Source: Arenicella sp. 4NH20-0111 (GTDB lineage Bacteria; Pseudomonadota; Gammaproteobacteria; Arenicellales; Arenicellaceae). From it: a stretch of 24,000 bases of DNA. Both the position numbers and the translations under genes were made by a program. The DNA is taken from NCBI RefSeq assembly GCF_040366405.1, contig NZ_BAABWF010000001.1, positions 886,563 to 910,562 of the forward strand, given 5' to 3'. The notes under the pieces were generated by a model that saw nothing but the letters and a program-made list of their open reading frames with translations, did no database searches and had not been told where the DNA came from. Of the stretch, positions 2,283-24,000 are shown in pieces; positions within the stretch are counted from its first letter, which is position 1, and each line of letters starts with the position of its first letter.

Positions 2283-4064
2283 CTATTGACTGAATGGAGT
2301 GACTCGCAGTACTTCAGCCATGGTGGTCAGTCCTGAGGCCACCTTTTTTGCACCACTCATTCTTAACGTTACTAAGCCGTCGTTAATGCTCTGGTCCCTC
2401 AAGCCTTCTAGGTCAGTCTCGTTCTTGACAAAGGGTTTTAGCTCCCTTGTCATTTCCATCATTTCGTATAGGCCGATTCGGCCTAAAAATCCCGTCTGTC
2501 GGCATTCTATGCAGCCAATGGGTTTGTGCGGCGTTCCTTGATTGAGCTCAGCGTTGTTGGTGAATTCAGCCCACACCTCGGCATCAATGGGGGCGGGCTC
2601 CTTACAATGTGGGCACAACGTTCTGACCAAACGCTGGGCCATCACCCCTAACACGGTCGCGCTAATTAGGTAGGCCGGCATGCCTAGTTCCAGCAGTCTT
2701 GTAACGGCGCTTGGTGCGTCGTTAGTGTGTAGTGTTGAGAGTACGAGATGTCCTGTTAGTGAGGCCTGAATGGCCATTTCAGCCGTTTGAAGGTCTCGGA
2801 TTTCACCAATCATGATGATGTCAGGATCCTGACGGAGCAGTGACTTCACACCGGCTGCGAAGCTCAGATCTATGGCATTGTGTACTTGAATTTGATTGAA
2901 ACTCGGTTCAACCATCTCGATCGGGTCCTCAATTGTGCAGACATTGACTTCACTTGTTGCAAGGTTTTTCAATGTTGAGTAAAGCGTCGTGGTTTTTCCA
3001 GAACCGGTTGGGCCTGTGACGAGAATGATGCCATTGGTGTGGGTCGTCATGCGGTTCCAGAGATCCAGTTCTCGGTCGTTTAGCCCTAGTTGACTGAAGC
3101 TACGCTGCAATACCTCGGGATCGAAAATTCGCATCACCATTTTTTCGCCCATCGCCGTCGGAACAGTCGACAATCGCAATTCGATCTCTTTGCCATCGGG
3201 GGTTCGAGTCTTCAGTCGGCCATCCAATGGTCTTCGTTTTTCAGAGATATCCATGCGAGCGAGTGTTTTTAAACGCCCGGTTATAGCCAATAACACATTG
3301 GGTGGAACTTGATAGGCGTAGTGCAGAATACCGTCTATTCGAAAGCGAACCTCACCTTGGTCTTTTCGTGGTTCTAGATGAATATCACTGGCTCTTTGTT
3401 CAAATGCATACTGCAATAACCAATCCACAACCTGAACGATATGATGGTCTTCGGCATCAAGTTGGCCGCTGCGCCCTAGATCAACTAATTGTTCTAGGTT
3501 TTGTTGAATCGAGACGCCTTGGTTCTTATCTGCGATGGATGAACGACTGATTGATTTCGCCAACGTATAGAACTCGCTCACGTAACGATCAATGTCGCTT
3601 GGATTGGCGAAAACGAGCTCAATGTCTTTGCGCAACAAGCCTTCTAAATTTTCTCGCCATGACAGTTCCAGTGGATTTTTAACCGCGAGCGTGACGCTGG
3701 TAGAGGTCGACTTAACCGCCAGTAAGCCATTTTGCTTAGCGTACTGTGGAGCCATGACTTGGGTGACCGATGAAATATCGATGTTCAATGGATCGATGTG
3801 GAAATATTCCATACCCAATACGCCAGCAAACCACTCACATAACTCGTCCATGGCAATTCTATCGCCACTTTTTATGTGCGTTGGTAAGCTACGCGCTATC
3901 GCAATCAGAGGGTGAGAAAACGGTGTGGCACTTTCGTTGATATTTTGATCTATGCGTTTGGCTTCGTTGACCGATATGACTTGGTCCTTGAACATAGCTT
4001 TGAGAATAGACTTATGAGAAAGGCGGTCTATTGTTGGTTTTTCAGTTTTCAAACTAGAGTTCAT
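2283..4064 (-). CDS. GspE/PilB-family secretion/pilus ATPase (T2SS/T4P ATPase superfamily); orphan
   Basis: 593-aa ORF. It has Walker A GPTGSGKTTTLYS, Walker B/Asp box DPDIIMIGEIRD, His box LVLSTLHTNDA, a tetracysteine motif CPHC...CIEC, and an N-terminal T2SSE_N-like region (GMEYFHIDPLNIDIS). No partner GspF/PilC, pilin or secretin gene is in the window. Confidence 0.88.
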   Translation of the reverse strand: MNSSLKTEKPTIDRLSHKSILKAMFKDQVISVNEAKRIDQNINESATPFSHPLIAIARSLPTHIKSGDRIAMDELCEWFAGVLGMEYFHIDPLNIDISSVTQVMAPQYAKQNGLLAVKSTSTSVTLAVKNPLELSWRENLEGLLRKDIELVFANPSDIDRYVSEFYTLAKSISRSSIADKNQGVSIQQNLEQLVDLGRSGQLDAEDHHIVQVVDWLLQYAFEQRASDIHLEPRKDQGEVRFRIDGILHYAYQVPPNVLLAITGRLKTLARMDISEKRRPLDGRLKTRTPDGKEIELRLSTVPTAMGEKMVMRIFDPEVLQRSFSQLGLNDRELDLWNRMTTHTNGIILVTGPTGSGKTTTLYSTLKNLATSEVNVCTIEDPIEMVEPSFNQIQVHNAIDLSFAAGVKSLLRQDPDIIMIGEIRDLQTAEMAIQASLTGHLVLSTLHTNDAPSAVTRLLELGMPAYLISATVLGVMAQRLVRTLCPHCKEPAPIDAEVWAEFTNNAELNQGTPHKPIGCIECRQTGFLGRIGLYEMMEMTRELKPFVKNETDLEGLRDQSINDGLVTLRMSGAKKVASGLTTMAEVLRVTPFSQ

Positions 4065-4181: not shown

Positions 4182-4664
4182 ATGATTCGTTTGATTATCG
4201 CTCTATTAGGAATAATTATGCTTTGGGTGTGGCTCTTTTCGCCACTAGGTAAGCGCCCAAGAATAGTATTGACTATATTCAGTATGGTGTTGGCTGTTTG
4301 CTTGGCATTGTTTGAGGCGTATTCTCATAAACCTCGAGAAAACTTGATCACCGTCAGCGAGATTCAACAGTGTGGGTTATCAGTCAGTCATCGATATCGA
4401 AGCGATTACCGCGTCAGCCTATGTTTAAAAAATGATTCTGGTAGCGCCAACGTTAAACGAATTGTCTTTAAGGTTATTGCATCCCGATGCACTGGCGCGG
4501 CCTCGTGTGAAGTGGTCGAGGAAGTGTCTAGGGATATCCCCGTTTCGATAGTGCCAAATACCAGCGTAGAGTTGATGGAAACGTTGCGATTCGAACAAGT
4601 GCAACCACAGGAAAAAGAGGTGGTTTGGGCTGCTGAGGTTGTCTCAGTAAAAGCGATACCCTAA
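4182..4664 (+). CDS. Hypothetical small membrane protein (two N-terminal TM helices plus a soluble domain)
   Basis: 160-aa ORF with hydrophobic segments LIIALLGIIMLWVWLF and IVLTIFSMVLAVCLALF. No obvious SD and no recognised family. Confidence 0.5.
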   Translation: MIRLIIALLGIIMLWVWLFSPLGKRPRIVLTIFSMVLAVCLALFEAYSHKPRENLITVSEIQQCGLSVSHRYRSDYRVSLCLKNDSGSANVKRIVFKVIASRCTGAASCEVVEEVSRDIPVSIVPNTSVELMETLRFEQVQPQEKEVVWAAEVVSVKAIP

Positions 4665-4679
4665 TCAGTAAGAATTTCA

Positions 4680-5156
4680 ATGCAACGCCGATCTCTTCAG
4701 TCGCTAATAAAAGCCATGTTCGCTCTTTTGGGGCTTACCTTTTTGTATGTGCTCTTTAGCAGTATTTCTGGTACCAATCAGGTCGGTGATTCTAGTGCGC
4801 TTTTTGATGACGTTGCGATTGGTCAAACTGCGTTAAGACGAAATGGGCAGCGTCGCGTATGGGTGAGTCGATTCAGTGGTCAGCAGCTCACAGAGCTAAC
4901 AACGTTAGAGTCAGTTTTGGTTGACCCTGCCGCTGGATGCGAAATCACGTTGGGTGTGTGCGTTCTTGACGCGAGCGCCAGTCGGTCTGGTATTGACATC
5001 GTATTCAGTGATTCGGTGCCCGCGCAGCTCGCTTCTGGATTGCCTTGGTTTGGTGGCTTTGTGGATCCTACTACAGGAGAGTTGTTTGACCGGCTAGGGC
5101 GAGCGTATTCTTCAACTCATCGGGGGCGATCGGAGCTTGTTCAAGCGGCAGATTAA
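4680..5156 (+). CDS. Membrane-anchored protein with a degenerate Rieske-like domain (Fe-S ligands absent)
   Basis: 158-aa ORF with an N-terminal TM anchor (MFALLGLTFLYVLF). GQRRVWVSRFSGQQL, CEITLGVCV and GGFVDPTTGELFDRLGR resemble PetA/Rieske segments (GKPxFIRRRT, CTHLGC, GGWFCPCHGSxYDxxGR), but the His/Cys ligands are missing. Confidence 0.5.
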   Translation: MQRRSLQSLIKAMFALLGLTFLYVLFSSISGTNQVGDSSALFDDVAIGQTALRRNGQRRVWVSRFSGQQLTELTTLESVLVDPAAGCEITLGVCVLDASASRSGIDIVFSDSVPAQLASGLPWFGGFVDPTTGELFDRLGRAYSSTHRGRSELVQAAD

Positions 5157-5182: not shown

Positions 5183-5776
5183 TTATCCGATGTGAAACCC
5201 CAGTTTAGCCGCGACATCAGCTGGGCTGAACACGTGGTGCGCTTGAATGCCGAGCTCGCGAGCCGCCATTACATTGTTAACATTGTCGTCAAAAAAGATT
5301 GTATCTTGAGGACGAAAGCCCAGTTTTTCCAATACGTAGGCAAACGATGCTCTGTTCGGCTTTGCGAGCCCGATTTTGTGGGAAAAATACAAGTGCTCGA
5401 TCAGAGAAGATAAGCCAAAGTCTATGGTTAGACGCTCTTCGTGCAGTTCGTTAGTATTTGATAGTACGGCAACTTGGTAACGGCTCTTTAGTTGATTCAC
5501 CAATTCCGACGCTCCAGGATAGAGTCCTTTTAGCCAGCCTTTAAATGTGTTCTCGAGCAACTCTTCCGTAATGTTTGGGTGTGTTCGACTCGTTAGCTCA
5601 CCCAGAAATGTTGAAGCACTAATTTCACCTCGTTCAAACTTTGTGGCCGTAGCGGAATCAAACCACTCCGTCAGCCCGAATGATTGACGGTCAATAAACC
5701 AGTCGGATGGAAACAACTCGTCACCGAGTTCAACGAGAACTCCCCCTAAATCGAGTAATATCAGTTGCGCGGTCAT
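5183..5776 (-). CDS. HAD-superfamily hydrolase (subfamily IA phosphatase-like)
   Basis: 197-aa ORF with motif I LLDLGGVL, motif II LSNTN and motif IV FFDDNVNNV. Confidence 0.8.
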   Translation of the reverse strand: MTAQLILLDLGGVLVELGDELFPSDWFIDRQSFGLTEWFDSATATKFERGEISASTFLGELTSRTHPNITEELLENTFKGWLKGLYPGASELVNQLKSRYQVAVLSNTNELHEERLTIDFGLSSLIEHLYFSHKIGLAKPNRASFAYVLEKLGFRPQDTIFFDDNVNNVMAARELGIQAHHVFSPADVAAKLGFHIG

Positions 5777-11842: not shown

Positions 11843-14116
11843 ATGAGTTTGCAGGAAAACCGTCCGCATAAAGACCTGATAGTTTCGGTGGCAGTTCCTG
11901 TCCCTCTTAGGCAAACGTTTGACTTTTTGGTGCCTAAAAGTTTGCTCGATCCGCCCATGTCAGACTCGCCTGGGGGGGAGGTGAATGTGGCGGCAAGAAC
12001 GCGCGTTAAGGTGTCGTTTGCAAACCGGACATTGATCGGTGTCATTGTAGAGGTGAAAACCGAGTCTGATTTTCCGTTGAGTAGGCTTAAGCCAATCGTT
12101 GAATTGTTCAGGGACCCACCTCTCTTTGACGATGCTCTCTGGAATAGTTTGCTGTGGCTTTCTCGTTATTACTTGGCGCCGATAGGCGAGGTTTTGGAAT
12201 CGGCCTTGCCGGTTTCTCTTAGAAAAGGCAATGAGTTAACGCCTTCGTCCGAAAGAGTCTGGAGACTTTCAGAGCACGGTCGTAGTTCGGCGGTAGACGA
12301 GTTAAATAGAGCACCCTTGCAGCTAGCAATAGTTCGCCGTTTCATGAAGCAAAGCACACTCAGTTCTAAAGAGTTTAAACAAGAGTCTGGCAATTGGCAT
12401 TCACCAGTTAAGAGTCTTGTTGATAAAGGTTGGTTAGAAGAGTTTACTCAAGAGCCTATTTTATTGGGCTCTGATATTTGTGAGAAAAGTAGCGTTACGT
12501 TAACCAATGAACAGAGTGTCGCGACCGAAGCATTGACAGACTTGATGAACGCCGAAGAGTTTTCTTGTTCACTATTGCACGGTGTGACTGGAAGCGGGAA
12601 AACCGAAGTCTACTTTGACATCATTGGAAAAACGTTGGCAAAGGGTAAAACGGTTTTAGTGCTTGTGCCTGAAATTGGCCTCACACCGCAATTGCTTGAG
12701 CGAATACAGCGACGTTTTGAGCAACCGATGACCGTATTGCATTCAGGCCTTAATGATACTGAACGACACACAGCTTGGTGGCACGCGAGTCAGGGGCATG
12801 CAAAAATTGTGCTTGGAACTCGTTCGGCGGTCTTTACACAGATTCCCAAACTGGGACTCATTGTGGTGGACGAAGAGCACGATGGGTCGTTTAAACAACA
12901 AGACAGCGTTCGTTATCAGGCGCGGGATTTGGCCGTGTACCGGGCAAAGCAAGCAAACGTGCCAATAGTGCTGGGCTCGGCGACTCCGTCAATGGAGACC
13001 TACGCCAATGCAAAGGCAGGAAGGTATTTACACCTACGATTAACAAAACGAGCCAGTGATGTGGCTCTGCCAAAAATTGAACTGTTTGATTTAAACACGC
13101 AGCCGGTTATTGACGGACTTTGCCCTGCCATGACCGAGGCGGTTGAACATACGTTATCAACCGGTAAACAGGTCATGCTGTTCTTAAACCGGCGTGGGTA
13201 TGCTCCCGTTCATTATTGTGGAGAATGCAAACAAGCGGCTAAATGTCATCGTTGTGATAGTAACCTTACTGTGCATCAGCGTGCTAATCGACTTCGTTGC
13301 CACCATTGTGGTTATGAGGGGCGGTTGCTTAATGATTGCCGTAGTTGCCACACCAAAGATTCGATGCTTGAGGTTGGGGATGGCACGCAACGAGTTGAAT
13401 CGGCATTGGCCACGCGTTTTCCTGAGGCAAGAGTTCAACGTATTGATCGTGATAATACCCAACGCAAGGGTGCATTAACGGCCGTGCTAGAGAAAGCCAG
13501 AAACAGCGAAGTCGACATTATCTTAGGTACCCAATTGATTACTAAGGGCCATGACTTCCCTAACGTTGGCATGGTTGGAATATTAGAGTGTGATCACGGT
13601 CTGTACAGCACAGACTATCGAGCTACTGAAACTTTGTTTCAGCAAGTTCTTCAAGTTTCGGGTCGGGCCGGTCGCCGTCAGGACGTCGGGCGAGTGTACA
13701 TTCAATCGAGATTTCCCGAACACCCATTTTTTGACTATATTAAGCAACATGACTTTGATGGGTTTGCGGATAACCTGCTTGCTGAACGCAAATCAGTGGG
13801 CTTTCCACCGTTTGGGTATTTTGCCTTACTTAGGGCCGAATCAACGCATCAAGCGAAAGCCTTACAATTTTTGCGCAGAGCTAAATCTGATTGTGGTCAA
13901 CAAGATGGTGTCATCGTGATGGATGCGGTGCCAGCTCCCATGGAGAGAAAAGCAGGCCGGTTTCGTGCTCAACTATTGTTTATGTCTTCGCAACGCTCTT
14001 CTCTAAACGCCATGTTATCGAATTGGTTACACTACATAGCGACAGACAAAGAGGCTAAAAAAGCAGCCTCATCGGTCCGATGGAATTTGGATATAGACCC
14101 ACTAGATCACTATTAG
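11843..14116 (+). CDS. priA: Primosomal replication restart helicase PriA (protein N')
   Basis: 757-aa ORF. It has the N-terminal VAVPVPLRQTFDFLVP, Walker A GVTGSGKTEVY, DEEH box VVDEEHDGSFKQ, and a Cys-rich zinc region CGECKQAAKCHRCDSNLTVHQRANRLRCHHCGYEGRLLNDCRSC. It is colinear with E. coli PriA. Confidence 0.95.
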   Translation: MSLQENRPHKDLIVSVAVPVPLRQTFDFLVPKSLLDPPMSDSPGGEVNVAARTRVKVSFANRTLIGVIVEVKTESDFPLSRLKPIVELFRDPPLFDDALWNSLLWLSRYYLAPIGEVLESALPVSLRKGNELTPSSERVWRLSEHGRSSAVDELNRAPLQLAIVRRFMKQSTLSSKEFKQESGNWHSPVKSLVDKGWLEEFTQEPILLGSDICEKSSVTLTNEQSVATEALTDLMNAEEFSCSLLHGVTGSGKTEVYFDIIGKTLAKGKTVLVLVPEIGLTPQLLERIQRRFEQPMTVLHSGLNDTERHTAWWHASQGHAKIVLGTRSAVFTQIPKLGLIVVDEEHDGSFKQQDSVRYQARDLAVYRAKQANVPIVLGSATPSMETYANAKAGRYLHLRLTKRASDVALPKIELFDLNTQPVIDGLCPAMTEAVEHTLSTGKQVMLFLNRRGYAPVHYCGECKQAAKCHRCDSNLTVHQRANRLRCHHCGYEGRLLNDCRSCHTKDSMLEVGDGTQRVESALATRFPEARVQRIDRDNTQRKGALTAVLEKARNSEVDIILGTQLITKGHDFPNVGMVGILECDHGLYSTDYRATETLFQQVLQVSGRAGRRQDVGRVYIQSRFPEHPFFDYIKQHDFDGFADNLLAERKSVGFPPFGYFALLRAESTHQAKALQFLRRAKSDCGQQDGVIVMDAVPAPMERKAGRFRAQLLFMSSQRSSLNAMLSNWLHYIATDKEAKKAASSVRWNLDIDPLDHY

Positions 14117-20167: not shown

Positions 20168-21406
20168 TTGAGTTCGAAAATAAAAACGTATCTTGTTGGC
20201 GGAGCCGTTCGAGACCGATTGCTGGATCTGCCTATTCTAGATCGAGATTGGGTCGTGGTGGGTGCCACACCAGATCACATGGTAAGCCTCGGCTACGAGC
20301 CTGTAGGAAAAGATTTTCCGGTGTTTATCAATAAAAAAACAGGCGAAGAATACGCACTGGCTCGAACCGAACGTAAAACCGCAAAAGGCTACCAAGGGTT
20401 CGCGTTTTCTACTTCTCCGAACATCAGCTTAGAAGATGACCTAGAGCGCCGAGACCTAACGATCAATGCCATTGCAGAAGACGATGATGGCAACTTAATC
20501 GATCCTTTTGGTGGTCAGGCAGACTTAAAAAGCGGCGTACTACGCCATGTTTCGGACGCGTTCATCGAAGACCCTGTTCGGATATTACGCGCAGCCCGTT
20601 TTGCCGCGCGCTTTCATTTTAAAATTGCGCCAGAAACTCAAGATTTAATGAAGTCCATGGTGGCCGCAGGCGAAGTCGATGCGTTGGTGCCAGAACGCGT
20701 ATGGGCTGAAACACTTAAGGCACTTAAGACTGAGTCGCCGCATCTGTTTTTTAAAGTGCTAAGAGACTGTGGTGCTCTTGCAAGAGTAATGCCTGAAGTT
20801 GACGCGCTTTTTGGAGTGCCACAAACGGCAAGCTACCATCCAGAAATAGACACGGGTATTCACACCTTGATGGTGGTTGAACAAGCCGCAAAACTGACTC
20901 AAGATCCTATGGTGCGATTCGCGGCACTGGTGCACGATTTGGGCAAAGGAGTGACGCCTGAGGACATTTTGCCGTCGCACCGAGGGCACGAACAAGCTGG
21001 GTTGCCGCTCATTCGTGAATTCTCCGAACGACTAAGAGTACCTAAAAAGTATCTGTCATTGGCTCTTGCGGTGGGTGAGTATCACCTGCACATGCACAAG
21101 ATGTATGAACTCAAGGCAAGTACTGTTTTAACAATGTTGGAAAAAACCCGTAGCCTCATGGACGATGATCGCACAGAACAAATAGCCACGGCATGCGTAG
21201 CCGATGCACGTGGAAGAACGGGATTTGAAGACCGTGATTACTCGCAAGCCAAAATGTATATCCGTTTTCAGCAAGCGGCCAAAAGCGTTGACGCTGGTGC
21301 GATTGCCAAAAAGTATTCAAGTGGGGATCAAATCCAAGCGGCAATACGGGTAGAAAGACTCAACGCAATTAAGGCCGTTAAAGCTAAATACCCCTCCCCT
21401 TCGTAA
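20168..21406 (+). CDS. cca: Multifunctional CCA-adding enzyme (tRNA nucleotidyltransferase with HD phosphohydrolase domain)
   Basis: 412-aa ORF with YLVGGAVRDRLL...DRDWVV, RRDLTINA, and an HD domain (HDLGK). There is no in-frame ATG near the conserved N-terminus, so the TTG start at 20168 is inferred. Confidence 0.9.
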   Translation: MSSKIKTYLVGGAVRDRLLDLPILDRDWVVVGATPDHMVSLGYEPVGKDFPVFINKKTGEEYALARTERKTAKGYQGFAFSTSPNISLEDDLERRDLTINAIAEDDDGNLIDPFGGQADLKSGVLRHVSDAFIEDPVRILRAARFAARFHFKIAPETQDLMKSMVAAGEVDALVPERVWAETLKALKTESPHLFFKVLRDCGALARVMPEVDALFGVPQTASYHPEIDTGIHTLMVVEQAAKLTQDPMVRFAALVHDLGKGVTPEDILPSHRGHEQAGLPLIREFSERLRVPKKYLSLALAVGEYHLHMHKMYELKASTVLTMLEKTRSLMDDDRTEQIATACVADARGRTGFEDRDYSQAKMYIRFQQAAKSVDAGAIAKKYSSGDQIQAAIRVERLNAIKAVKAKYPSPS

Positions 21407-21650
21407 AGATTTTTGGCTTCAATCGCAACTAGTGTGGCCGTGAATGGAGAGGCAAAATTCGCGAGTCTTTTCTCGCAATTGAAACGTTGATACAGCGCCG
21501 GTTTACCCAGTACTTTCGCAGAATCTGCGGTGGCTAGTTAACTTTGCCGCCTCTATGCGCGCATTTTTGTCCATTCACAAACCGAATAACGCAGTATAAA
21601 CAAGACTTTATAAAAGAAGCTGGGAATGTTAATGTGCGCTGACTCGGACA

Positions 21651-21670
21651 AAAATGAGCATGCTCATTTT
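21651..21670. repeat. Perfect 20-bp palindrome AAAATGAGCATGCTCATTTT
   Basis: Read directly: 21651-21660 is the exact reverse complement of 21661-21670. It lies in the non-coding gap between cca and the first cassette. Function unknown. Confidence 0.9.
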
Positions 21671-21780
21671 CATTCCAAAGTAAAAGGAGATATTTTTGAA
21701 ATACTTTACTAATTCAATGGCTTGCGAATCTTTTTTGAGGCCGCTCTTAGCGCGTAAACGCGCATGCACACTAATACGCT

Positions 21781-21787
21781 GTTAGCT
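21781..21787 (+). other. First GTTRRRY core site (GTTAGCT): left boundary of the cassette array (attI-like or attC remnant)
   Basis: GTTAGCT lies 3 nt before the first cassette ATG and is identical to the R' core of the attC at 22300-22306. No paired R''/L'' arm could be found upstream. Confidence 0.5.
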
Positions 21788-21789
21788 AG

Positions 21790-22239
21790 ATGAATGATGT
21801 CGATTTAATCAAAGCTCATCTTGTCGGTGACTTTGTTACCAGTTTCTCTGTTGGTTCGACTGGGTGGTCAATTCAATTTTCGGAATGTGAATATGTGCTT
21901 TTGGCGCAAAATCTAGCTTCACCAGTTGAAGCTCTACTTAACGAACTCTATCAAAAGAATTTTCCCGTAGTTAGTAAAACTGCTGATAAAGGAGACGTCG
22001 CTAAATCCACGATAATGTCTTGTTGTCTCAGACAAAAGATTCGGGATATAAAATTAGATACAAAGAAAAACCTAGAGATAAATTACGAAAATGATATATC
22101 AATAACATGTCCTACTGATATGGATATGGTTGATTGGCAATGGTCATTTACCCGCGATGGAAAATGCCCATACACTACAAATACACTTTTAATAGGTTGT
22201 CTTTGGCAAGGAGAGATAGAGCGTGGAAAAACTAGCTAA
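21790..22239 (+). CDS. Cassette 1 orphan protein (149 aa, soluble, 6 Cys)
   Basis: The ORF starts 8 nt after the core site. Its TAA stop (22237-22239) lies inside the attC inverse core AGCTAAC. No recognised domain. Confidence 0.7.
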   Translation: MNDVDLIKAHLVGDFVTSFSVGSTGWSIQFSECEYVLLAQNLASPVEALLNELYQKNFPVVSKTADKGDVAKSTIMSCCLRQKIRDIKLDTKKNLEINYENDISITCPTDMDMVDWQWSFTRDGKCPYTTNTLLIGCLWQGEIERGKTS

Positions 22240-22306
22240 CAAGTCTCAAAACAAACGCCTTCGGCTCGGACGCGTTTTCAACGCGCCCGTTTGAGAGGCG
22301 TTAGCT
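22234..22306 (+). repeat. attC site 1 (73 bp)
   Basis: AGCTAACAAGTCTCAAAAC...GGACGCGTTTTCAACGCGCCC...GTTTGAGAGGCGTTAGCT. R''/L'' (TAACAAGTCTCAAAC) pairs with L'/R' (GTTTGAGA-GGC-GTTA), leaving unpaired bases. Confidence 0.85.
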
Positions 22307-22311
22307 TCACG

Positions 22312-22716
22312 ATGGATATCGAGTATCTGAAAAGGAAGCGGCAGAAATCCGTCCAACAACAAAACGCTGTCCTTAAACATAAAATTTCTTGTTGTGCTGA
22401 GAACTGGCTCAACGGTGAAAAATTACCTAAGCCAATAGAGAAATACCTTAATGAAAAAGGCATTAATAGAGACAATGCTCTCCTAATTGAATATCACGGA
22501 GGTCCAGCACAATACCAAATGTCATACTCAGGAATACTAATCACAAATGATGAAGATTTCATAGGATTTGAGTTTGACCTTAATGTTCGTGAAACGAACA
22601 TAGAGTATGTTGAAAACTTTGGTAAAGTATCTATTGAAACATCTTGTCATTTACATGGCGTTGGTAAGTCGTTTGGTTGTCTCAGTAAGGAAGTCCTGCA
22701 TGAAATCAGAAGCTAA
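22312..22716 (+). CDS. Cassette 2 orphan protein (134 aa; basic N-terminal helix)
   Basis: The track ORF starts at TTG 22291, inside attC1 and across the recombination point. ATG 22312, 11 nt into the cassette, is preferred. The TAA stop (22714-16) lies inside AGCTAAC of attC2. Confidence 0.68.
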   Translation: MDIEYLKRKRQKSVQQQNAVLKHKISCCAENWLNGEKLPKPIEKYLNEKGINRDNALLIEYHGGPAQYQMSYSGILITNDEDFIGFEFDLNVRETNIEYVENFGKVSIETSCHLHGVGKSFGCLSKEVLHEIRS

Positions 22717-22785
22717 CAAGAACCAAAACGCTGCCTACGGCAGTTCGGACGCGTTTTCAACGCGCCCGTTTGCTTGGCGTTAAGC
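22711..22785 (+). repeat. attC site 2 (75 bp)
   Basis: AGCTAACAAGAACCAAAAC...GGACGCGTTTTCAACGCGCCC...GTTTGCTTGGCGTTAAGC. It has the same 21-nt core as attC1 and attC3. Confidence 0.85.
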
Positions 22786-22795
22786 GCATAAAGTC

Positions 22796-23206
22796 ATGGG
22801 AGAATCCTTACTAAACCAGTTAGCGGCCTCTAATGTGCCCTTAATCGAAATAGTAGTTCGATTTAAAGAAGGAATAGATTATAAGAATGCAACTGAGCAA
22901 TTTAACTCACTAGGCGAAGACATACACCTCAGTGGGGGAGATTGGTATAACCAACCTAACCTTAGAGTAGGTGATGCATCCGCAGAAGCACTGTTTAGAT
23001 TATTCGGGTGGAAGGTTCACAGAGTACCTTTGATTCTGGAGGGCCATGAGAAAGGGGCGACCACGGAAAGTGAGTACTATTGCTGGGATGAATTGGAGCC
23101 ACAATGTTGTTTGCCTTCAACTATGCAAGACATAATTGGAGGCATATCTTTTAGTCAACCCGGCTCAAATGATGAGGGGCAATGGTATGAACCTAAATTC
23201 GCCTAA
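22796..23206 (+). CDS. Cassette 3 orphan protein (136 aa, acidic, soluble)
   Basis: The ATG is 16 nt after the core site, and the TAA stop (23204-06) lies inside GCCTAAC of attC3. No recognised domain. Confidence 0.7.
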   Translation: MGESLLNQLAASNVPLIEIVVRFKEGIDYKNATEQFNSLGEDIHLSGGDWYNQPNLRVGDASAEALFRLFGWKVHRVPLILEGHEKGATTESEYYCWDELEPQCCLPSTMQDIIGGISFSQPGSNDEGQWYEPKFA

Positions 23207-23281
23207 CAAGCGCTTTAAATATCCCTCCCGCTGGTCGGGCGGGACGCGTTTTCAACGCGCCCCGTTAAGCGGGCGTTAGTG
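23201..23281 (+). repeat. attC site 3 (81 bp)
   Basis: GCCTAACAAGCGCTTTAA...GGACGCGTTTTCAACGCGCCC...CGTTAAGCGGGCGTTAGTG. CGCTTTAA pairs with TTAAGCG with one extra T. Confidence 0.85.
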
Positions 23282-23296
23282 ATACGAGAGTTCTGA

Positions 23297-23692
23297 ATGA
23301 ACAAAGCAATTTATTTTAAGACATCACTTTTTGACCCTTCAAAGGAAGATGAAAATGATATAAACCCTATCTACGGCCAATCATTGCTAATTTGGCTTCG
23401 AGATAAGCTTGGTAGTGAACTAGAGTTCTCTGAAATCGGTACCGAAGATTGGGGCTGGTATTGTTATATCAACTGGAAGGGCAGGCAGTACTTAATTGGA
23501 TCAATAGCTCATTTTGAAGAAGGTGATGATCCCAATATGGATACCGATTGGATATTCCAAGTGGATAAAACCCGTTCGTTTAAAGAAGTAATATTTGGAA
23601 AAGAAAAAATGACAAAGAATGATCCATGCTTTCTCTTCTTCAAAAAGTATTTTGAAGAAGAGCCTCAAATTAAGGACGTAGAAATTGGCTAA
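23297..23692 (+). CDS. Cassette 4 orphan protein (131 aa, acidic, aromatic-rich EDWGWYCYINW segment)
   Basis: The ATG is 21 nt after the core site with a GAGAG SD-like sequence 6 nt upstream. The stop TAA (23690-92) is 2 nt before attC4. Confidence 0.72.
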   Translation: MNKAIYFKTSLFDPSKEDENDINPIYGQSLLIWLRDKLGSELEFSEIGTEDWGWYCYINWKGRQYLIGSIAHFEEGDDPNMDTDWIFQVDKTRSFKEVIFGKEKMTKNDPCFLFFKKYFEEEPQIKDVEIG

Positions 23693-23694
23693 AT

Positions 23695-23785
23695 CACTAA
23701 CAAGTTTCCAAAGTGCACTCCACTCCCTGCGGTCGTTCCGCGGGACACCGCATACGACGCGGTGCCCCTTGGCAAGGCGTTATAT
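23695..23785 (+). repeat. attC site 4 (91 bp; different internal sequence)
   Basis: CACTAACAAGTTTCCAAAG...CCTTGGCAAGGCGTTATAT. The ends follow the same R''/R' pattern, but the centre lacks the shared 21-nt core. Instead it carries two short hairpins (CCCTGCGG/CCGCGGG and CACCGC/GCGGTG). Confidence 0.75.
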
Positions 23786-23800
23786 CGATAGCGGGTTAAT

Positions 23801-24000
23801 ATGAAAGACTTAGGAATATTTTTTATTAAAGTATCTGTTTTTGCCTTTATTGGGGCGGGGGCATCAATAGCATCAATTGGAATTCCTCTTATGGACTATG
23901 GAAAAGAATCTAGAGTTCTAATCTATGAGGTAGAAGAAAAAATTGGTAAACGGCCAAATGAAGAAGTTTGCATTCCAGAGCTTGCGAAAGATTACTTAGG
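23801..24000 (+). CDS. Cassette 5 orphan membrane protein; 3' end beyond the window
   Basis: Not in the track because it is truncated. Manual translation gives MKDLGIFFIKVSVFAFIGAGASIASIGIPLMDYGKESRVLIYEVEEKIGKRPNEEVCIPELAKDYL. It has an N-terminal TM helix, and the ATG is 21 nt after core site GTTATAT. Confidence 0.55.
   Translation, partial: MKDLGIFFIKVSVFAFIGAGASIASIGIPLMDYGKESRVLIYEVEEKIGKRPNEEVCIPELAKDYL

Follow-up and report, generated by a model that had tools for sequence, protein, structure and literature searches.

Introduction

Clusters of attC sites without an integron integrase (CALINs) outnumber complete integrons in genome surveys and are usually viewed as passive cassette stores or debris. 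About half of them sit in genomes that encode the integron integrase, IntI, elsewhere (PMC4889954). The mobilisation of their cassettes in trans, and the conserved positions that they occupy, have already been discussed (PMC4889954; bioRxiv 10.1101/2025.06.18.660453). Here we describe an array of this kind downstream of cca in 24,000 nucleotides of Arenicella sp. 4NH20-0111 (contig NZ_BAABWF010000001.1, positions 886,563 to 910,562; the whole stretch is hereafter the window). The array was first noticed in a reading of the sequence alone, which we call the original prediction. We hold with high confidence that the region is a satellite attI platform, consisting of a leader, an attI and at least five cassettes, whose intI is missing locally and which is served in trans by the single IntI of the genome.

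By the operational definition the window array is a CALIN, and so an element of a common, already described kind: two or more attC sites with cassettes are present, there is no intI nearby, and the genome has an IntI elsewhere (PMC4889954). It differs from other CALINs in keeping a recognisable attI together with the whole intI-attI leader, and the comparisons below suggest that cassettes are still gained and lost at this attI. A conserved, apparently active orphan attI in a cultured strain is the one unusual feature of the array.

With the Vibrio cholerae superintegron the array shares a chromosomal location, lineage-specific homogeneous attC sites and small, mostly unannotated cassettes; a LexA box in the integrase promoter and a cassette content that is highly variable between strains are further points of likeness. 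A classical sedentary chromosomal integron has a single attI beside intI, whereas in the species of 4NH20-0111 a single intI is accompanied by further attI-headed arrays, at least two of them, at cca and at rluB. Sedentary integrons are recognised by homogeneous attC sites together with either more than ~19 such sites or presence in all strains of the species; this array is present in four of four sampled backbones, and the window reaches only as far as cassette 5. The ilvD-linked integrons of Xanthomonas are similar in being an ancient platform at conserved positions with frequent integrase loss, leaving CALINs at conserved loci across species (bioRxiv 10.1101/2025.06.18.660453). The CALIN cassettes of X. 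citri are fixed, and the platform was judged inactive (bioRxiv 10.1101/2025.06.18.660453), in contrast to the variable first cassettes and intact IntI found here.

No description of Arenicella integrons was found in the literature searched. The locus offers a cultured, testable case of an integrase-less array with conserved attI and leader and an intact integrase elsewhere, and the one IntI and at least two orphan attI sites of strain NBRC 116583 make a defined system for the question of capture in trans.

The cassette array and its attC sites

GTT cores start at 21781, 22300, 22779, 23275 and 23779. They delimit four complete units of 519, 479, 496 and 504 bp and a fifth that is cut by the window edge, all of which the original prediction had right to the base. 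It had also given each unit one + strand open reading frame (ORF), as we find; by our count the ORFs begin 9-22 nt past the core (8-21 nt in that prediction).

20168..21406, + strand: cca (CCA-adding tRNA nucleotidyltransferase), the left boundary gene, co-oriented with the cassettes and outside the integron
21782..22300, + strand: cassette 1, 519 bp; ORF 21790-22239 (149 aa, NBRC116583_07900); attC 22234-22306 (73 nt)
22301..22779, + strand: cassette 2, 479 bp; ORF 22312-22716 (134 aa, NBRC116583_07910); attC 22711-22785 (75 nt)
22780..23275, + strand: cassette 3, 496 bp; ORF 22796-23206 (136 aa, NBRC116583_07920); attC 23201-23281 (81 nt)
23276..23779, + strand: cassette 4, 504 bp; ORF 23297-23692 (131 aa, NBRC116583_07930); attC 23695-23785 (91 nt)
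23780..24000, + strand: cassette 5, truncated at the window edge; core GTTATAT, ATG at 23801, frame open to the edge

The identity of cca is supported by the Pfam domains PolyA_pol, PolyA_pol_RNAbd and HD, found on an identical gene in one of the compared loci (L003; L numbers denote these loci throughout).

Each of the four repeats is an imperfect palindrome of 73-91 nt running from nCTAACAAG to GGCGTTA plus 3 nt. The first base, proposed to be A or C, is G, G, C and A in the four sites. The proposed ending stands apart from the last core, where GTTATAT deviates from GTTRRRY at one position. We count four occurrences of the motif pair CTAACAAG-N50-76-GGCGTTA where 100 shuffles predict 0.00, and the four sites, at 73-91 nt, have the form of attC, with R'' (RYYYAAC) and R' (GTTRRRY) flanking a palindrome of ~57-141 nt. 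The bottom strand folds better than the top strand in all four (-19.7 to -21.8 versus -17.0 to -19.1 kcal/mol), with z scores of -2.6 to -4.7.

RNAalifold on a sequence-only attC alignment was nearly blank, returning one short stem, so the canonical pairing was imposed and counted instead, on an alignment of 22 bottom strands taken from the window and from arrays related to it. This alignment shows next to no variation in the TAAC/GTTA core. Compensatory changes occur at six of seven L-box pairs, a level of covariation reached by none of 500 shuffles, and the L-box covariation also holds on 15 independent attC sites from complete integrons. The three outer R positions, which in arrays derive from the neighbouring cassette, are paired in only 53% of cells, a figure in line with hybrid sites. 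A one-base bulge lies on the R''-L'' arm in 12 sites and on the other arm in two, with eight ambiguous (three of the four window sites have it on the R''-L'' arm); as far as alignment can tell, this asymmetry matches expectation for the extrahelical bases that mark the recombinogenic bottom strand.

Two covariance models were applied. R2 was built only from the 15 attC sites adjoining bona fide intI in L102 and L104 (Arenicella xantha and an uncultured Arenicella), to avoid circularity. It scores attC1 to attC4 of the window at 62.2, 55.0, 43.5 and 49.3 bits (E-values 7e-10 to 5e-15) and finds nothing else below E = 0.7 over the whole 24 kb. The R1 model gives 75.2, 68.1, 63.2 and 57.5 bits, and the four sites are homogeneous. 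Rfam had no match in 21000-24000, nor in L022 and L104, and most sites escaped a hand-written R''/R' pairing rule. The four repeats are attC sites, of the Arenicella integron family. The R''-L''...L'-R' organisation originally proposed, with a polarity that places attI to the left, is thus borne out by folds, covariation and an independent covariance model, whose strong matches (43.5-62.2 bits) are the opposite of the null result that was to count against it.

The cassettes are also discrete units, recombined at G|TT. In 10 of 17 internal cassettes R'' matches the cassette's own 5' end over 8-9 nt, versus 4-8 nt for the downstream neighbour (cassette 2 of the window: 9 nt versus 4 nt); in the remaining seven the own-end match covers only 4-5 nt. 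The own-end match holds also for the first cassettes of the window, L003 and L010, and extends over 9 nt in window cassettes 1 and 4. Such a match is the trace left by circular intermediates cut between the G and TT of the core.

Leader and attI

The 375 bp between cca (stop 21406) and the first core were originally described as free of long ORFs, and no ORF of at least 50 aa lies within 21407-21789. They are not featureless, however: about 285 bp are homologous to an intI-attI leader, with a conserved attI.

21495..21780, + strand: integron leader, homologue of the intI-attI intergenic region, 75% identical to the leader of L008 in another backbone
21495..21510, no strand assigned: degenerate LexA box and remnant of the intI promoter (PintI), GCGCCGGTTTACCCAG, aligning with perfect CTGT-N8-ACAG boxes beside intI in L092, L088, L102, L104 and L112
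21440..21478, - strand: candidate ghost of the first intI codons (ATT GCG AGA AAA...), ~15 nt beyond the LexA-box remnant, at the intI start position of L092, L088, L102 and L104
21623..21637, + strand: conserved leader motif GGAATGTTAATGTGC, also in L008, L012 (two copies), L092, L098 and L112
21651..21670, no strand assigned: perfect 20-nt palindrome AAAATGAGCATGCTCATTTT within the leader
21754..21787, + strand: attI, invariant block GTAAACGCGCATGCACACTAATACGCTGTTAG plus core GTTAGCT, with the crossover between G21781 and T21782

The conserved end of attI in the window reads ...CACTAATACGCTG up to the crossover (between 21781 and 21782) and TTAG beyond it. The 32-bp block GTAAAyGCGCATGCACACTAATACGCTGTTAG is invariant in seven of seven aligned contexts. 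The pyrE-cca backbone is also found, 99.2-99.7% identical, on three metagenome contigs (L003, L004, L005), which are homologous to the window only as far as position 21785, within the core. L008, which has a purB-rluB backbone, shares window positions 21510-22303, comprising ~270 bp upstream of the core and cassette 1; its leader homology begins at the LexA-box remnant.

A scan of metagenomes with a degenerate form of the attI block returned 23 loci, two of which (L088, L092) have a full-length divergent integron integrase whose gene starts ~300 bp from attI (TIGR02249 scores of 393 and 397 bits, cutoff 265). In all, the same attI is found ~300 bp from a divergent intI in L088, L092, L102, L104, L110 and L111. 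In Arenicella xantha and other Arenicella genomes the order is the ATG of intI, ~20 nt, a perfect LexA box, a leader of ~280 bp, then ...TAATAAGCT followed across the crossover by GTTAG. The block order of the window leader is the same as in leaders adjoining bona fide intI, and an 80-bp alignment of the window leader with its paralogue, the species' own canonical leader (L112), gives ~75% identity. Since the same site stands ~300 bp from intI in complete integrons, these alignments identify the window junction as a true attI, homologous to the attI beside bona fide intI, and 21495-21780 as a leader homologue. An exact 24-mer of the block was absent from species-representative genomes. We also asked whether 21695-21790 might be a degenerate attC and rejected the idea, since shuffled sequences fold as well as this interval (z = +0.36) and neither R1 nor R2 matches it.

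The similarity at the candidate intI ghost is slight (IARKDS versus MRRKSP), a weak case for a ghost of four codons at most. In L012, the closest relative, ~13 intI codons are still clear at this position, an in-place truncation. The leader presumably carries the cassette promoter.

At the position of the leader palindrome other lineages have different sequences, AAAACGCGCATGCGCGTTTT in L088, AAAGCGAGCTGGCTCGCTTT in L092 and CAAAGGGAGCCGGCTCCCTTTG in L102. The symmetry is kept while the sequence differs, so the arms change together, and the palindrome could be a binding site or a hairpin. It lies ~110-130 bp upstream of attI, and its left half with the GCATGC centre is repeated right beside the attI core.

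The integron at L088 (7411-8700) was found with an attI pattern derived from the window. Its IntI is 100% identical to a Vibrio fluvialis integrase, 66-87% identical to those of Shewanella and 59-60% identical to Arenicella IntI. It has an attI of the same family (...GCGCATGCGCACTAATAAGCT followed by GTTA) and the same leader layout with a LexA box. It differs from the window in being a complete integron with an adjacent intI, in belonging to another bacterial order and in the larger product of its first cassette (334 aa). Different orders of marine gammaproteobacteria therefore have this type of attI in common, despite integrases that are only ~60% identical. To our knowledge, attI sites are essentially uncharacterised outside the clinical classes. 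IntegronFinder looks for attI only in classes 1-3 (PMC4889954); the consensus common to the window and L088 could be added to detection tools.

Location of the integrase

No recombinase was found in the 21.7 kb to the left or the 2.2 kb to the right of the array start, using Pfam on the larger ORFs and tblastn with IntI probes. The probes were IntI1, VchIntIA and integrases read from the compared loci. This agrees with the original claim for the preceding ~21 kb and makes the CALIN label correct: cca ends 375 bp from the crossover, and there is no intI where a complete integron would have it. A substitute recombinase at the intI position was considered and rejected, as unrelated housekeeping genes stand there in each context.

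An intact intI is present in the same isolate. The window lies on a 912-kb contig, and cassettes 1-4, PyrE, PriA, MscL and an MFS transporter are exact matches to Arenicella sp. 4NH20-0111 (NBRC 116583). The full-length integron integrase of this isolate, P0157 (333 aa), is encoded on another contig, of 359 kb, behind a perfect LexA box; its gene has as neighbours an error-prone DNA polymerase and a LysR/CysB-type regulator, the canonical setting of intI in relatives. An IntI identical to P0157 occurs in the metagenome assembly that holds the window's backbone, where its leader has a perfect LexA box (L112). The original prediction had left two choices, integrase-less or separated from its integrase, and had proposed a genome search; with intI on another contig the array is separated from its integrase, not dead, and P0157 IntI probably still serves it.

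The backbone of L008 comes from this species as well: its purB and heme-o-synthase genes are exact matches to a 227-kb contig of the isolate. One intI and two or more attI-headed arrays that lack it, at cca and at rluB, are therefore present in the species. At least four other species (L016, L020/L022, L024, L071) have an attI near cca with no intI beside it. The one in L071 is decayed, and belongs to a metagenome-assembled genome whose intI sits at the leuCD locus. In the other integrase-less contexts, too, the intI position is taken by unrelated housekeeping genes, which makes repeated intI loss, or rearrangement at the intI/leader boundary, the likely source of such platforms.

Downstream of the Arenicella intI, in the same orientation and separated from it by 4-74 bp (4-14 bp at four of five loci), is the gene for a 1005-1021-aa error-prone DNA polymerase of DnaE2 type, with a perfect LexA box ahead of the pair at these loci:

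L112, 160-4236
L102, 1665-5731
L104, 6001-10076
L108, 186-4239
L109, 246-4299

The arrangement looks like an SOS-controlled intI-dnaE2 operon, which is not known to have been described before.

Insertion sequences are one proposed route to the splitting of integrons. An IS110-family transposase gene (L110 374-1528) stands ~650 bp from attI and ~1 kb from intI, just inside a complete Arenicella-type array.

Cassette turnover

Behind the four pyrE-cca backbones (window, L003, L004, L005), 99.2-99.7% identical, stand four different first cassettes at attI. Two other integrase-less leader groups have distinct first cassettes in three of four and eight of eight members, and an intI-linked group in two of two. 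Arrays of the eight-member group share distal blocks that are 99-100% identical, but the distance of these blocks from attI varies; one of the arrays also has a 1.3-kb indel inside it. Insertion and excision at attI and between attC sites give nested arrays of this kind, which whole-array replacement does not.

Cassette 1 of the window recurs in four array contexts (window, L008/L009, L010 and L011): it takes first place at both the cca and the rluB leader, stands second after a third leader, and elsewhere follows another attC. Within one community, its copies at three different attI leaders are 99.8-100% identical. Strict synteny among relatives would have spoken against an integron array in the original prediction; at the cca-downstream locus the cassettes are not syntenic. 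A common first cassette of L092 and L091 was considered and dropped, the two being paralogous cassettes with 85-97% identity.

Proposed mechanism and alternative explanations

In the scheme that we favour, the SOS response would lead to production of the single IntI, which would act in trans. IntI would recombine folded bottom strands, attC x attC, to excise cassettes, and the resulting circles could be inserted at any genomic attI, the orphan attI at cca included. Transcription of the cassettes would probably start in the leader or reach them as read-through from cca, which has the same orientation. If IntI acts in trans on any attI, the cca-linked array would be a working platform and not a fossil. 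A wider proposal, to which we give even chances, is that Arenicella has a multi-platform integron: one SOS-controlled IntI would serve at least three attI sites with diverged leaders beside different housekeeping genes, and the integrase-less platforms would be kept by selection, over genus-level divergence, as extra sites of capture and expression. Many of the elements now filed as CALINs could then be functional integrons except for the location of the integrase.

Several points weigh against an active platform at cca. A simple consensus promoter scan found no + strand promoter in the leader. The decayed LexA box and any intI remnant show that part of the leader is under relaxed constraint. 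The sequence of L112 ends 159 bp upstream of intI, which puts the isolate's canonical attI outside the sequence read; for this reason the identity of the two attI sites of this genome with each other is inferred, with L010 as the candidate. The nested arrays come from a different lineage than the window. At the window locus the strains differ over the whole visible array, with no nested pattern and no common cassettes, so homologous whole-array replacement anchored in the conserved leader could explain the polymorphism there; recombination at the window array itself is inferred, not directly observed.

One alternative is that the array is a fossil, in which the integrase was deleted from a once complete cca-linked integron and no recombination has occurred since, strain differences reflecting homologous whole-array exchange or old polymorphism. 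The absence of intI and the degenerate LexA box fit it, as do the truncation of intI in place after ~13 codons in L012, the decayed mini-arrays near cca in L071 and L023, and the lack of common cassettes in the visible arrays of the window-group strains. We nevertheless think it unlikely. The attC sites are intact (57-75 bits), the attI block stays unchanged even between leaders of only 75% identity, and the same genome has an intact IntI. Nor would a fossil be expected to show four first cassettes among backbones less than 1% apart, copies of cassette 1 with 99.8-100% identity behind three different attI leaders of a single community, or the nested arrays of another integrase-less group.

The two remaining explanations concern how the junction arose. 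IntI can insert cassettes at genomic sites that need little beyond GTT, and this has been proposed as one origin of CALINs; insertion at such a non-canonical secondary site (attG type) downstream of cca would require no real attI. Yet a secondary site would carry no leader, and here the ~285 bp before the crossover match the intI-attI leader block for block, including the attI simple site and the LexA-box remnant, which leaves this origin very improbable. That an assembly or scaffolding error joined cca, across attC or attI repeats, to an array that truly lies beside intI is an idea to which we attach next to no weight. Such repeats do often break or mis-join short-read assemblies, and contigs L003 and L112 end inside arrays, but the isolate contig and three independent metagenome assemblies all carry this cca-leader-attI junction, with 99.2-99.7% identity. 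Moreover, the window leader is a diverged paralogue (~75% identical) of the canonical leader, not a copy, and related species also have attI arrays near cca. The platform served in trans remains our explanation of the locus.

Cassette content

The five cassette products have no Pfam, NCBIfam or PADLOC match, so the original statement that every product is an orphan is true of annotation. It does not hold for cassette 4 in terms of homologues: the product belongs to an unannotated family of 251 clusters, proteins of roughly 130 aa with conserved residues E17, W33, EDWGW (50-54) and R93. The product of cassette 1 has only two homologue clusters among 5.8 billion proteins. The predicted structure of the cassette 4 product is a confident alpha/beta model (pLDDT 96.7) with no significant match among solved structures in PDB (best E = 0.012, TM scores 0.3-0.4); its weak best matches include Eag/SciW chaperones of the type VI secretion system (TM ~0.38, not significant). 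Nothing in the cassette genes points to a particular new function.

The rluB-linked array of L008 has at 12595-13983 a cassette for a 462-aa ApeA-NTD/HEPN protein, in the same 90% identity cluster as a plasmid protein of Pseudomonas luteola. This suggests recent sharing of a likely defence cassette between genera.

Arenicella-type arrays repeatedly contain two families of ORF-less cassettes of ~335-350 bp, which often occupy the first place after attI and have paralogous copies, 82-97% identical, inside a single array:

L022, 16698-18057
L104, about 5350-5700 (first cassette)
L024, 9155-9332
L092, 10381-10732

They match no Rfam family and could be promoter or RNA cassettes.

Elsewhere in the window

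Two adjacent ORFs of ~160 aa, at 4182-4664 and 4680-5156, have no Pfam match. The pair is divergent to, and 118 bp from, a gene for an ATPase of MshE type, or type II secretion system E (T2SS-E) type, at 2283-4064.

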